DNA from: a virus
Taxonomy: Duplodnaviria; Heunggongvirae; Uroviricota; Caudoviricetes
Length of the DNA: 13,651 nucleotides
Virus record (IMG/VR): IMGVR_UViG_2654587685_000021
Direction: 5' to 3' (one strand)
Under the pieces are notes generated by a model. The model was given only the letters and a program-made list of their open reading frames with translations. It did no database searches and was not told the origin of the DNA. The translations under genes were made by a program, and so were the position numbers. Shown in pieces: positions 1 to 13,102 of the stretch. Each line of letters opens with the position of its first letter. Position 1 is the first letter of the stretch.

Positions 1-366
1 ATGATTGATGTCTTAGGGCCGGAGAAACGCAGACGGCGTACCACACAGGAAAAGATCGCAATTGTTCAGCAGAGCTTTGAACCGGGGATGACGGTCTCCC
101 TCGTTGCCCGGCAACATGGTGTAGCAGCCAGCCAGTTATTTCTCTGGCGTAAGCAATACCAGGAAGGAAGTCTTACTGCTGTCGCCGCCGGAGAACAGGT
201 TGTTCCTGCCTCTGAACTTGCTGCCGCCATGAAGCAGATTAAAGAACTCCAGCGCCTGCTCGGCAAGAAAACGATGGAAAATGAACTCCTCAAAGAAGCC
301 GTTGAATATGGACGGGCAAAAAAGTGGATAGCGCACGCGCCCTTATTGCCCGGGGATGGGGAGTAA
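1..366 (+). CDS. insC: IS2 transposase OrfA (InsC), helix-turn-helix DNA-binding part
   Basis: 121-aa ORF ([40 protein letters not shown]...) recognised as IS2 InsC; ATG at 1. Confidence 0.85.
318..324 (+). promoter_or_regulatory. Programmed -1 ribosomal frameshift site A AAA AAG of IS2 (insC to insD)
   Basis: The heptamer AAAAAAG occupies 318-324 with AAA and AAG in the insC zero frame (..R A K K W..). The insD frame is exactly -1. This is the standard IS3-family arrangement. Confidence 0.7.
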
Positions 367-1229
367 GCTTAGTCAGCCGTTGTCTCCGGGTGTCGCGTGC
401 GCAGTTGCACGTCATTCTCAGACGAACCGATGACTGGATGGATGGCCGCCGCAGTCGTCACACTGATGATACGGATGTGCTTCTCCGTATACACCATGTT
501 ATCGGAGAGCTGCCCACGTATGGTTATCGTCGGGTATGGGCGCTGCTTCGCAGACAGGCAGAACTTGATGGTATGCCTGCGATCAATGCCAAACGTGTTT
601 ACCGGATCATGCGCCAGAATGCGCTGTTGCTTGAGCGAAAACCTGCTGTACCGCCATCGAAACGGGCACATACAGGCAGAGTGGCCGTGAAAGAAAGCAA
701 TCAGCGATGGTGCTCTGACGGGTTCGAGTTCTGCTGTGATAACGGAGAGAGACTGCGTGTCACGTTCGCGCTGGACTGCTGTGATCGTGAGGCACTGCAC
801 TGGGCGGTCACTACCGGCGGCTTCAACAGTGAAACAGTACAGGACGTCATGCTGGGAGCGGTGGAACGCCGCTTCGGCAACGATCTTCCGTCGTCTCCAG
901 TGGAGTGGCTGACGGATAATGGTTCATGCTACCGGGCTAATGAAACACGCCAGTTCGCCCGGATGTTGGGACTTGAACCGAAGAACACGGCGGTGCGGAG
1001 TCCGGAGAGTAACGGAATAGCAGAGAGCTTCGTGAAAACGATAAAGCGTGACTACATCAGTATCATGCCCAAACCAGACGGGTTAACGGCAGCAAAGAAC
1101 CTTGCAGAGGCGTTCGAGCATTATAACGAATGGCATCCGCATAGTGCGCTGGGTTATCGCTCGCCACGGGAATATCTGCGGCAGCAGGCTTGTAATGGGT
1201 TAAGTGATAACAGATGTCTGGAAATATAG
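324..1229 (+). CDS. insD: IS2 transposase OrfB (InsD), DDE catalytic domain; normally made as an InsCD fusion by -1 frameshifting
   Basis: 301-aa ORF in the -1 frame relative to insC, overlapping its 3' end; recognised as IS2 InsD. The listed start at 324 is a GTG; the functional product is expected to be the fusion. Confidence 0.85.
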
Positions 1230-1240
1230 GGGCAAATCCA

Positions 1241-9619: not shown

Positions 9620-10759
9620 GTGGGAAACAATAAAGTGAAATTAGGAAGAAATGATAAGTGCTGGTGTAATTCAGGACTTAAGTATAAAAAGTGCCATCTT
9701 GGTCGAGATCGTGAAACTCCGGTATCCAAAGCCGAGGCACTGAAATTTTCAAAGTCTCTCTCGCAGAGAAAGGCATGTTATGCGCCAGCATCCATGCACG
9801 AAGATTGTGATAAACGCATCGTTCAGGCGCATACGATATCTAAGAGCAGTAGCCTTAAGGCGATCGCCGACTCCAGCAATCACGTCATGGGGGTGATAAT
9901 GAACTTAGCAAGCCTGATGAGAAACAACGGAAAATGGCTTCCCGAGAAGATCGGTATCAATCAGGCATCCACTTTTACAGGATTTTGTGCAGTTCATGAC
10001 AGAATCTTATTTTCATGCCTAGAGAACGAAAAATTTACAGGCACGGACGAGCAGTGCTTTGCCTTAATGTTTCGTTCATTGTCTAAAGAAATTTATGCCA
10101 AAGAAGGGGGAGTGCTATCTTCTGATTTTGCTAAAAATGCCGATAAAGGAAAGCTACAAGTTGAACAGTATTATATTCAGAAATTAATCGACCAGCACCA
10201 AAGTGGCTTAAATGCAGCAATAATTGAATTAAATAATCTTAAAACTAGCCTCGACCGCATCCTACTTAGCAGGCAATTTTCAGAAATTGAAAGTGTTATC
10301 TTCACTTTTGCAGAGCCTTTACCAATTGTAGTTTCGTCAATTCTTTCACCGGAGAGGGATTTCGATGGGACCAAAATTCAGGATTTGAGCGATCTTACAG
10401 TGTCGGCGGAACAAGTATGTTTCAATGCTTTTTCCTGCGGAGGTAAGGGATATGTTGTGTTCAGTTGGCTGAGAACTTCAACAATTATCAGACGTTTTAT
10501 ACGGACACTAATTAAGATCCCAGCTAACAGGATGTTCAATACCCTTCTGTATTTTTTCTTCACAAAGGCCGAAAATACATATTCATCCCCTGAGTGGTGG
10601 GACAGGCTCAGTGATAAACAGCGAGAGAATATCGGCAACATGATTATGTCAGGGGTTGAATTTTTTGGCATACCTACATCACAGGTTGATCATTCCGTTG
10701 ATTATAACGCCGCTGCACTTGAAGAGATAACATGCAGCAACAACGAAATTTGCAGCTGA
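9620..10759 (+). CDS. Hypothetical 379-aa protein with an N-terminal SEC-C-type zinc-binding motif; AT-rich cargo gene between D and ogr (candidate anti-phage or accessory function)
   Basis: Residues 14-26, CWCNSGLKYKKCH, fit the SecA C-terminal SEC-C consensus (CxCxSGxKYKxC[H/C]). The rest has no domain I can name. The start is GTG at 9620; the frame opens at 9608 after TAG, and the first in-frame ATG would delete the motif. No clear Shine-Dalgarno. AT-rich relative to the tail genes. Confidence 0.7.
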   Translation: MGNNKVKLGRNDKCWCNSGLKYKKCHLGRDRETPVSKAEALKFSKSLSQRKACYAPASMHEDCDKRIVQAHTISKSSSLKAIADSSNHVMGVIMNLASLMRNNGKWLPEKIGINQASTFTGFCAVHDRILFSCLENEKFTGTDEQCFALMFRSLSKEIYAKEGGVLSSDFAKNADKGKLQVEQYYIQKLIDQHQSGLNAAIIELNNLKTSLDRILLSRQFSEIESVIFTFAEPLPIVVSSILSPERDFDGTKIQDLSDLTVSAEQVCFNAFSCGGKGYVVFSWLRTSTIIRRFIRTLIKIPANRMFNTLLYFFFTKAENTYSSPEWWDRLSDKQRENIGNMIMSGVEFFGIPTSQVDHSVDYNAAALEEITCSNNEICS

Positions 10760-11048: not shown

Positions 11049-11309
11049 ATGTTCCGTTGTCCGCTTTGTGGCGCATCTGCCCGAATCCGCACCAGTCGTC
11101 CGGAAAACGATTCAAACACTGTGCGGCAAAAGTATTACCAGTGTAACAACCTGGAATGCGGCGTATGCTTCTCAACACTGGAAGCTTTCCATAAATTCAC
11201 ATCAAAACACGCCTCCGGCGTTCACTCTTCGGAAGGTATCCCGTGGCATGAGCTGCCAGCTTCACACAGGGGAAACAATCAGATGAGTTTGCCTTTACCT
11301 CAGAATTAA
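11049..11309 (+). CDS. ogr: Ogr/Delta-family zinc-finger late transcription activator
   Basis: MFRCPLCGASARIRTSR....YYQCNNLECGVCF has the CxxC-(22)-CxxxxC arrangement and the N-terminal consensus I recall for P2 Ogr (MFHCPLC..A.ARTSR...YHQCQN..C). AGGGAGG lies 5 nt before the ATG. It sits at the prophage end as in P2. Confidence 0.85.
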   Translation: MFRCPLCGASARIRTSRPENDSNTVRQKYYQCNNLECGVCFSTLEAFHKFTSKHASGVHSSEGIPWHELPASHRGNNQMSLPLPQN

Positions 11310-11499
11310 CAGGCAGAATTGCCGGAGTAACAAAAAAACGATAGATTACCCGCGGGTGCCTTTCGGCTGATGGTCGGAGGAATACCCGAAGGCCGGATGT
11401 GGAAAGGCCCCGGAAAACATTTCTGTTTAACCGAGGCCCTAACATATCTACCTTAAGCAAGTGATAGGTTAGCGCCTCTCCAACAAAGGAGCAAGCGCT

Positions 11500-11640
11500 A
11501 TGTCGCAAAAATCGCTTACAGCCATCACGTTCTGCGTGACGGTAATCCTCATCATCTGGATGCTACACGGTTCGCTGTGTGAAATACGGATGAGCTTCTG
11601 GGGAGCGGAGTTTGCGGCGTTCTTACAGTGTAAGCAGTAA
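11500..11640 (+). CDS. Hok/Gef-family type I toxin (46 aa), absent from the ORF track
   Basis: ATG 11500 to TAA 11638-11640 encodes MSQKSLTAITFCVTVILIIWMLHGSLCEIRMSFWGAEFAAFLQCKQ: one N-terminal transmembrane helix followed by the Hok-family SLCE(I/L) motif and AAF(L/M). AAAGGA lies upstream; an in-frame TAG at 11470-11472 closes the frame. Confidence 0.7.
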   Translation: MSQKSLTAITFCVTVILIIWMLHGSLCEIRMSFWGAEFAAFLQCKQ

Positions 11641-11728
11641 GGAAACCGCGACGGGGGAGCAATCCCCCGTCAATCGGTTGCTAAGGTTGGCTGAAGTGGC
11701 ACCCTATCTCACAGACATGAACAACAAA

Positions 11729-11760
11729 CCCGCAGCGTAAGAACTGCGGGTTTTCTTTTT
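11729..11760 (+). terminator. Rho-independent terminator downstream of the hok-like gene
   Basis: CCCGCAG (11729-11735), an 8-nt loop, CTGCGGG (11744-11750), then TTTTCTTTTT. It is preceded by a second GC hairpin, GACGGGGGA-GCAA-TCCCCCGTC, which could be the 3' fold-back element of a hok-type mRNA. Confidence 0.6.
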
Positions 11761-11828
11761 GGAACAATCACTAGCTAGTGTACCGTTAACGGCACATAAT
11801 GCTCGCACAACAAACCTGTTAAAAGAGA

Positions 11829-12110
11829 TTACTCAGCATTCTCCTGCTTCCATTGCCGGATCATTTCATCGGTAACATCACCCTCATAACATACCACGTC
11901 ATACCCTCCATTACGGCTATATGCACTGCGTCCACCACATCTACTACCATTCCTTGCATGATTATAAGGACACGCACAATTGCCTGGATAAGATTCAATG
12001 GATTCTTTAATTATTTCTTTTTTGATCTGAGCATCAGACTTTCCTGTTGCTGCATATCCACTAAAAGATACTAAACAAAGGCAGATTGCCATTAATAAAC
12101 CACATCGCAT
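11829..12110 (-). CDS. Small secreted Cys-rich hypothetical protein (about 93 aa with signal peptide)
   Basis: The ORF is open to 12224, but the signal-peptide-like start MRCGLLMAICLCLVSFSGYAA|TGK begins at the ATG at 12110. The mature part has 6 Cys (..YPGNCACPYNHARNGSRCGGRSAY..VVCYEGD..). AT-rich. No family assignment from memory. Confidence 0.5.
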   Translation of the reverse strand: MRCGLLMAICLCLVSFSGYAATGKSDAQIKKEIIKESIESYPGNCACPYNHARNGSRCGGRSAYSRNGGYDVVCYEGDVTDEMIRQWKQENAE

Positions 12111-12412
12111 ACCGATACACTCTATTACTAACCAATCATAGCCCACATCATAAAATCGAGATGAGGAGTACAATACCTTTAACAAGAAGGTGTCATAACG
12201 ATAATATGTCGTGCAATTCATCAAAAAAAAGATCTATATCAAAGAGATAGAACTCTTATCAGCGCTTCAGACATCGGCATTCGAGGCAGCAGAAAAACAG
12301 TAAATCTGACGAATTTGCCTTTTCCCAAGATGTTGTCAGATTAAAAAGATAGATTAGCGCAGGTACCTGTTGGTGGATTGCAGGAGGAAAAATGAAGTCG
12401 AGTGAAAAAATC

Positions 12413-12474
12413 CCAGAAAAATTTTTGTTTAACAGAGGTCCTGGTTCACTATGCGAAATACGGAGGAGCTGCAG
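12413..12474 (+). pseudogene. hok-locus remnant: degenerate second copy with an internal deletion of about 127 bp
   Basis: 12413-12442 matches 11410-11440 (about 26 of 30) and 12443-12474 matches 11568-11600 inside hok (about 26 of 32), with the intervening hok start and transmembrane coding part missing. A 34-aa ORF at 12392-12496 with an AGGAGG upstream retains the GSLCEIR motif but has no transmembrane helix. Confidence 0.5.
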
Positions 12475-12580
12475 AAGAATTCTGCTTCATCCTTAGAGTT
12501 TAAACAGCACGTGCACTACCATTGTTTCTGCATATCGCCACACCATCGCCACTCTACCGCCATTGCACAAAATACAAATA

Positions 12581-12607
12581 CGAAAAAACCACCCGAAGGT
12601 GGTTTCA
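12581..12607 (-). terminator. Rho-independent terminator of the glyW-cysT-leuZ tRNA operon
   Basis: The minus strand reads AAACCACC-TTCG-GGTGGTTT followed by a T run, about 40 nt downstream of the leuZ 3' end. Confidence 0.7.
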
Positions 12608-12648
12608 CGACACTGCTTATTGCTTTGATTTTATTCTTATCTTTCCCA

Positions 12649-12735
12649 TGGTACCCGGAGCGGGACTTGAACCCGCACAGCGCGAACGCCGAGGGATTTT
12701 AAATCCCTTGTGTCTACCGATTCCACCATCCGGGC
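12649..12735 (-). tRNA. leuZ: tRNA-Leu (anticodon UAA)
   Basis: The reverse complement reads GCCCGGATGGTGGAATCGGTAGACACAAGGGATTTAAAATCCCTCGGCGTTCGCGCTGTGCGGGTTCAAGTCCCGCTCCGGGTACCA: 87 nt, long variable arm, encoded CCA end. Confidence 0.9.
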
Positions 12736-12747
12736 TCGGGAAGAAAG

Positions 12748-12821
12748 TGGAGGCGCGTTCCGGAGTCGAACCGGACTAGACGGATTTGCAATCCGCTACA
12801 TAACCGCTTTGTTAACGCGCC
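12748..12821 (-). tRNA. cysT: tRNA-Cys (anticodon GCA)
   Basis: The reverse complement reads GGCGCGTTAACAAAGCGGTTATGTAGCGGATTGCAAATCCGTCTAGTCCGGTTCGACTCCGGAACGCGCCTCCA: 74 nt, anticodon loop UUGCAAA. Confidence 0.9.
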
Positions 12822-12875
12822 AAATCCTTCAGGCCTTTCAGCCAGACATCCGCTTGAGGCCGATGTCTTTTAAAC

Positions 12876-12951
<76 letters not shown>

Positions 12952-13024
12952 ATTCATCAAGCAATCAGTTAATCACTTGATTTTATTATCGTCTGGCAAT
13001 CAGTGCCGCCGTTCGATGCGTTGC

Positions 13025-13052
13025 ATTCTACTTACCTGGCGCGATGAGTCAA
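13025..13052 (-). promoter_or_regulatory. Probable sigma70 promoter of the glyW-cysT-leuZ operon
   Basis: The minus strand has TTGACT (13052-13047), a 16-nt spacer and TAGAAT (13030-13025), followed by a GC-rich discriminator and preceded by an A/T-rich UP-like tract. It lies about 65 nt upstream of the glyW 5' end. Confidence 0.5.
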
Positions 13053-13102
13053 CGATATTTTTCACCACTTTTGATCGTTTGCTGAAAATTGCGCCGAAAC
13101 GA

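Follow-up and report, generated by a model that had tools for sequence, protein, structure and literature searches.

Among the classical examples of phages that use tRNA genes as attachment sites are P4, at leuX, and P22, at thrW, and such sites were reportedly classed by Williams in 2002 according to their sublocation, anticodon loop or T loop. The core recognised by a tyrosine recombinase usually consists of two inverted half-sites around a 7-bp spacer. In the case of the integrases targeting tRNA genes, crossovers take place in the anticodon or T loops, with the identity extending 3' from there, and the phages classically restore the target gene by means of an attP copy of its 3' half. Phage P2 presents an ogr - attP - int layout and a 27-bp core, and its attB, locI, is not a tRNA gene. 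A P2-like prophage remnant located at leuZ, Sp13, is presumably the same element as CP-933T of strain EDL933. The leuZ gene has been described as the site of Sp13 in O157 Sakai (PMC8190617) and as a prophage or island site in O121:H19 (PMC8767318) and O145:H28 (PMC7067040).

The DNA analysed here (hereafter the window) is a stretch of 13,651 nucleotides from the IMG/VR virus record IMGVR_UViG_2654587685_000021, which covers the end of a P2-like prophage that holds the tail and late genes and continues into host DNA, pgsA being situated beyond leuZ, cysT and glyW. We conclude that its 12225-12648 interval very probably represents the right-hand attachment junction (attR) of a P2-like (Xuanwuvirus-type) prophage of approximately 37.3 kb, inserted through tyrosine-integrase site-specific recombination into the leuZ tRNA-Leu(UAA) gene itself. 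The prophage is located between yecA and the glyW-cysT-leuZ operon. Its other end was read from near-identical genomes and not from the window's own; that of E. coli SCU-105 shares 99.9% identity with the window across 12.4 kb, and among the best-ranked matches listed none covers window positions 1-1240. These positions, which belong to the tail-fibre region, fall outside the main alignment of the best-matching genomes, which align from 1241, and represent a variable or mosaic segment.

According to the RefSeq annotation of SCU-105, which includes gene D as well as sheath, tube, tape measure, capsid, portal and terminase genes, the prophage genes running toward leuZ are those for sheath, tube, tape measure, D, a 379-aa SEC-C 'YecA family' protein, ogr, Hok/Gef and a 93-aa hypothetical protein. 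The presence of an Ogr/Delta activator and of P2-type tail and late genes beside the attachment site identifies the element as P2-like (Peduoviridae), and its nearest phage records belong to Xuanwuvirus. A first-pass annotation, made from the sequence alone, had taken ogr as the mark of the att-proximal end of the prophage, and ogr, as identified by Pfam (Table 1), is indeed followed by no other conserved P2-type gene up to the attachment region. The 379-aa cargo gene (window 9620-10759, plus strand) lies between gene D and ogr, encodes an N-terminal SEC-C motif and is annotated as 'YecA family protein'; no PHROG family was found for it. The prophage carrying this 'YecA family' gene sits beside the host yecA, and in the related prophage of DETEC-S565 (L086) another gene is found at its position.

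Window segment 11300-13100 was compared by megablast with 5426 complete E. coli genomes, all of which gave matches. Most of them, K-12 included, aligned only from query positions 1279-1284 rightwards, equivalent to window positions 12578-12583. At least 80% of the query was present in 324 genomes, and the O157:H7 genomes aligned from window position 11778. Since island-free genomes match only from approximately 12580, the 11310-12582 stretch is accessory DNA and not backbone, and its 12225-12582 portion is phage DNA. The match between the window and K-12 was exact from 12583 up to the end of the compared segment (window 12749), leuZ and its terminator being base-for-base identical. The first-pass annotation had proposed precisely this alignment, conceding that the boundary would have to be sought elsewhere if 11760-12648 turned out to be conserved backbone. 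That is not the case: the breakpoint lies at approximately 12578-12583 and only 12583-12648 is shared. Its claim that the element ends near the leuZ terminator was borne out, as the element-specific DNA stops at 12582, directly against the terminator T-tract. Moreover, the K-12 yecA-leuZ interval corresponds exactly to the left flank of attL, one copy of a 121-bp block (L002 4004-4124) and the right flank of attR, as befits the empty state of a tRNA-gene attachment site.

This 121-bp block is present as a perfect direct repeat bounding the prophage. In the near-identical lysogens, a second copy is placed beside the integrase gene, on the yecA side, at a repeat-to-repeat distance of 37,310 bp. 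The attR copy is composed of 66 bp (12583-12648) that span the 3' trailer and the terminator, hairpin and T-tract included, plus leuZ nucleotides 33-87 (55 nt, 12649-12703). It begins with the initial base of the leuZ anticodon loop (12703), precisely where this 7-nt loop meets the 5' anticodon stem. The sequence repeated at both ends is identical to the 3' part of the tRNA gene, the identity starts in the anticodon loop and the gene is regenerated intact. At the attL of SCU-105, the int-proximal arm gives way, in the direction of yecA, to the 3' part of leuZ from the anticodon loop onwards, after which come the leuZ terminator and then the usual upstream region of yecA. An identical perfect repeat bounds the prophage of DETEC-S565, which has diverged by approximately 5% over window 11300-13100, and the displaced leuZ 3' fragment with its terminator is fused to the integrase-proximal arm in SCU-105, DETEC-S565 and O157 ATCC 43889. 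Every lysogen holds two att copies, both at the ends, and the possibility of an internal att belonging to a tandem or remnant element was rejected: apart from chance 11-12-mers, the lysogens yielded no further copy or fragment of the core. The first-pass annotation had rightly warned that the junction could not be determined from one end, for it was placed to the base only via the other prophage end in lysogens, and the search for a direct repeat at that end, which it had recommended, yielded the perfect 121-bp repeat of SCU-105 and DETEC-S565. In the phage collection, no record of the window's phage with an att region was found from which attP could be read in a free phage. The sole record with this integrase, 'phage 520873', was rejected as an attP source, being a prophage cut-out that includes yecA, and the vB_EcoM-...R records were rejected as free-phage attP for the same reason.

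Table 1. Features of the window in the region of the prophage right end (positions refer to the window).
Feature	Position	Strand	Evidence or remarks
ogr, late-gene activator, Ogr/Delta zinc finger	11049-11309	+	Pfam PF04606 Ogr_Delta, E = 5.1e-14; ogr/Delta-like in SCU-105
Intact hok/sok-type toxin-antitoxin locus	11354-11753	+	sok-like RNA 11354-11510, hok CDS 11500-11640, terminator 11726-11753
ORF93, 93-aa cargo, Cys-rich, hydrophobic N-terminus	11829-12110	-	phrog_27544, E = 7e-58; hypothetical WP_001303543.1 in lysogens
Decayed, non-coding second copy (ogr 3' end, hok/sok leader, piece of hok CDS)	12303-12470	+	Similarity to 11277-11640
Candidate integrase arm-type sites (P arm) ATCGCCACA, ATCGCCACT, ACCGCCATT	12534-12564	+	9-mers with starts spaced by 11 bp; distance to the core, 18 bp
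attR, 121-bp perfect direct repeat bounding the prophage	12583-12703		Longest exact match between both SCU-105 prophage ends; equals SCU-105 (L001) 39479-39599
Operon terminator (glyW-cysT-leuZ), Rho-independent, within the repeat	12585-12606	-	Terminator scan: 9-bp stem, 4-nt loop, T-run
leuZ, tRNA-Leu(UAA), intact	12649-12735	-	ARAGORN; Rfam tRNA 57.7 bits; identical to K-12
leuZ anticodon loop, proposed crossover (overlap) region	12697-12703	-	TTTAAAA in tRNA sense; 5-bp anticodon stem arms 12692-12696 and 12704-12708
cysT	12748-12821	-	ARAGORN
glyW	12876-12951	-	ARAGORN

The attachment site has an integrase gene adjacent to it: the last gene before yecA in SCU-105 encodes a 333-aa tyrosine integrase (phrog_1 integrase, E = 2e-76; read in a near-identical genome, outside the window) and ends 106 bp from the attL leuZ fragment. 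The junction between the integrase arm and the leuZ fragment is present in 525 of the 5426 complete E. coli genomes, and among STEC a complete right end of the window's type is frequently found in O26, O103 and O111. Integrases 68-81% identical were found in Enterobacter, Kosakonia, Buttiauxella, Serratia, Edwardsiella, Hafnia and Symbiopectobacterium, in every case with either an intact leuZ or a 3' fragment of tRNA-Leu(UAA) at a distance of approximately 115-160 bp. When L007, L014 and L071 were compared to L006, L008, L010, L011, L013, L074, L076 and E. coli L001, two layouts became apparent. In one of them, that of the window's prophage, the P' arm and then the displaced leuZ fragment come after int; in the other, int borders on the P arm, beyond which lies the terminator of an intact leuZ-cysT-glyW. 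This indicates that the attP cassette is inverted relative to the phage backbone and that prophages sit in either orientation at leuZ. At the Kosakonia oryziphila locus (L074 3788-4372, minus strand), the core copy is also faced by a second, truncated integrase, suggestive of another element that is either decayed or in tandem. A 73%-identical integrase occurs in Serratia microhaemolytica (L009 3673-5005) at a junction with host DNA next to degS/degQ whose only leuZ-like sequence is GAGGGATTTTAAA, corresponding to the 3' anticodon stem and loop; this junction may be a secondary or retargeted site.

The window's prophage and P2 agree in their gene order (D - ogr - att - int) and in the transcription of int toward att, and a heterobivalent tyrosine integrase with arm sites is expected. 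The two differ in their target, a 121-bp block in a tRNA gene versus a short core in a non-tRNA site, and in the cargo that the window's prophage carries between D and att (SEC-C protein, hok/sok and ORF93). As in the sites of the P4/P22 type, the block runs from a tRNA loop through the 3' end, the gene is regenerated and a 3' fragment is left at the far end. Unlike in those sites, it is the displaced fragment, and not the regenerated gene, that lies beside int, and beyond the gene the block takes in another 66 bp, with the entire terminator. The Sp13-type prophage of O157 ATCC 43889 has the same site, integrase arm and attL leuZ fragment, and from 11778 onwards it shares ORF93, the decayed copy, the P arm and attR with 99.2% identity. 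In contrast to the window element, which shows the full tail, D, ogr and hok end, it is defective: IS30 replaces the region from mid-gene D through ogr and hok, and head genes are missing. The lambdoid mEp390 (NC_019721) is a free phage harbouring the 121-bp block, from anticodon loop to terminator, beside its integrase; the block is annotated as attP, 'putative prophage insertion site', and the terminator-side arm likewise has repeated TTCGCCAT motifs. However, its Int is only 21% identical, its block is 88.5% identical and Enterobacter-like, and int is on the terminator side of the block, so that the restored tRNA adjoins int.

The accessory DNA between ogr and attR contains an intact hok/sok-type locus, ORF93, a decayed second copy of ogr and hok/sok sequences, and candidate arm-type sites (Table 1). 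The hok coding sequence matched Pfam HOK_GEF with an E value of 3.7e-7, which passes the cutoff, while the match of the sok-like RNA to Rfam RF01794 (46.7 bits, E = 1e-8) is below the gathering score of 59. Loci approximately 84% identical to this hok/sok are found in many Stx2a-converting phages. The Escherichia phage P88 (Xuanwuvirus) matches the window at 98% identity across the 3' end of ogr and hok/sok (11300-11760), but past the hok terminator it has another integrase and attachment region, without the leuZ block. The ogr-hok module is all that P88 and its relatives have in common with this region. ORF93, for which no Pfam family above cutoff was found, is located between the hok terminator and the decayed copy and is kept even in the degraded O157 prophage. 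For ORF131 (11829-12224), a Sclerostin identity was dismissed, as the Pfam match was sub-threshold.

The decayed copy is made up of a part of ogr (12303-12330 versus 11277-11304, 79%), the hok/sok leader (12343-12442 versus 11335-11440, 77%; local score of 58, compared to 18.7 ± 2.2 with a maximum of 30 for shuffled sequences) and a part of the hok coding sequence (12443-12470 versus 11569-11596, 86%), with about 130 nt missing between the leader and the mid-CDS fragment. It gave no Rfam or Pfam match over 12303-12470 and does not constitute an intact hok/sok locus. This relic, kept in the diverged DETEC-S565 prophage and in O157, is probably a scar left when an old exchange brought a P88-like ogr-hok module together with an att-int module specific for leuZ.

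Judging from their arrangement, the three phased 9-mers next to the core probably bind the arm-binding domain of the integrase. The same motif, also phased, is found at a matching distance from the leuZ terminator in the Enterobacter, Kosakonia (GCTGCCAY), Hafnia, Symbiopectobacterium and Serratia loci with related integrases, and related motifs are present in the int-proximal arm. Across genera, 9-mers (ATCGCCAY or GCTGCCAY) phased at 11 bp are found, two or three at a time, 16-27 bp from the leuZ terminator (at ~3530-3570 in L007, L009, L014 and L071, and at ~3740-3790 in L074), and the variation of the motif appears to follow the integrase lineage. The ANCGCCAYT motif was not significantly enriched in the window (3 found versus 1.2 expected), so the candidacy of the 9-mers as arm sites comes only from their cross-genus conservation and 11-bp phasing.

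Regarding the mechanism, attP would hold a 121-bp copy of host DNA, from the first base of the anticodon loop through the leuZ 3' end to the end of the operon terminator, and strand exchange would most likely occur in the 7-nt anticodon loop, between the inverted 5-bp stem arms. As a result, the native 5' 32 nt of leuZ would become joined to the phage-borne 3' half and terminator (window 12583-12703), with phage DNA leftwards, and the native 3' half and terminator would be moved 37 kb away, beside yecA and the integrase gene, to form attL. The phage 3' half and terminator would thereby restore leuZ, keeping the tRNA operon functional. With the crossover in the anticodon loop, a placement that we infer by analogy with other tRNA-targeting integrases, the window most likely contains the phage's copy of the leuZ 3' half and terminator, the native one being that beside yecA. 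The first-pass annotation had regarded leuZ and its terminator as native and complete: they are certainly intact and identical to those of K-12, but the 3' half and the terminator most likely came with the phage.

The attL and attR cores are identical in SCU-105 and DETEC-S565, and being identical, the repeat copies do not allow the strand exchange or the phage-derived copy to be placed by sequence alone within the 121 bp. Mapping of the crossover by attL/attR differences was abandoned, given the identical cores, a single O157 SNP and a nearly invariant E. coli attB. This SNP, a T-to-G change at the equivalent of window position 12640, 9 nt downstream of leuZ, was observed in O157:H7 ATCC 43889 (L003 ~20863) in attR only, attL keeping the T; it could be a later mutation and is uninformative for the crossover. 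In the literature, we found site-level mentions only, and neither a mapped crossover for this integrase nor a mapped P2-like attP at leuZ.

Given the identical copies, either end of the block is formally possible as the place of exchange. A crossover at the terminator-proximal end, at approximately 12583-12600, would mean that the leuZ 3' half and terminator of the window are native and that the copy on the integrase/yecA side belongs to the phage. The terminator is itself an inverted repeat, and the phased 9-mers are only 18 bp from that end. Nevertheless, we consider a crossover there unlikely, as the opposite end of the block falls exactly at the stem/loop boundary, where canonical inverted 5-bp arms flank a 7-bp spacer. 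A second E. coli element (L091) ends at most one base past this same boundary, the Serratia L009 junction keeps of leuZ only the anticodon stem-loop segment mentioned above, and tyrosine integrases that target tRNA genes cross over in the anticodon or T loop, as noted at the outset. The homology of the mEp390 attP to the block also reaches within one base of the anticodon-loop boundary. The first-pass annotation, in turn, had favoured an intergenic insertion past the leuZ terminator, with leuZ never forming part of the recombination site. The intact, K-12-like state of leuZ and its terminator agrees with that view, which is contradicted by a repeat that starts at the anticodon loop, reaching 55 nt into leuZ, and by the leuZ 3' fragment duplicated at the far end, in attL, against the integrase arm, since an intergenic event is not expected to duplicate half a tRNA gene. 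Unless the window's own genome differs from all 525 junction carriers, intergenic integration is refuted, and we regard it as extremely improbable.

It could also be argued that an earlier, independent element at leuZ left behind the segment from approximately 11762 to 12582, with ORF93, the P arm and the ogr'/hok' relic, and that the present prophage abuts this segment instead of containing it. Such an origin would fit the duplication of ogr and hok sequences, the divergence of P88 after sharing 11300-11760 at 98%, and the fact that 11778-12582 occurs in no free phage of the collection. Yet no att copy or leuZ fragment exists between the two modules, and the arrangement is kept both in the ~5% diverged L086, with different cargo genes, and in O157. 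Moreover, the segment carries the P arm motifs which adjoin the core in all related systems, and must therefore travel with attP, and the relic is better explained as a scar within one phage genome. All this makes a leftover of an older element improbable, and we favour a single prophage that contains the segment.

The leuZ attachment site is an ordinary and already known one, a standard tRNA-gene site of a known prophage family; integration into tRNA genes with regeneration of the gene is textbook knowledge and leuZ is a published site, so no new biology is involved. The annotation is corrected in that the prophage boundary is the 121-bp attR within leuZ and not an intergenic point, which is of use for delimiting a common STEC-associated prophage and for typing leuZ-site occupancy. 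Tentatively, and with more doubt than confidence, the leuZ-specific int/attP unit can be viewed as a cassette exchangeable among P2-like backbones, with the ogr'/hok' relic as the scar of a swap, P-core-P' in either orientation, and possible tandem or retargeted insertions such as those of L074 and L009. Were this so, approximately 10% of the sequenced E. coli would express a leuZ with a viral 3' half and terminator.
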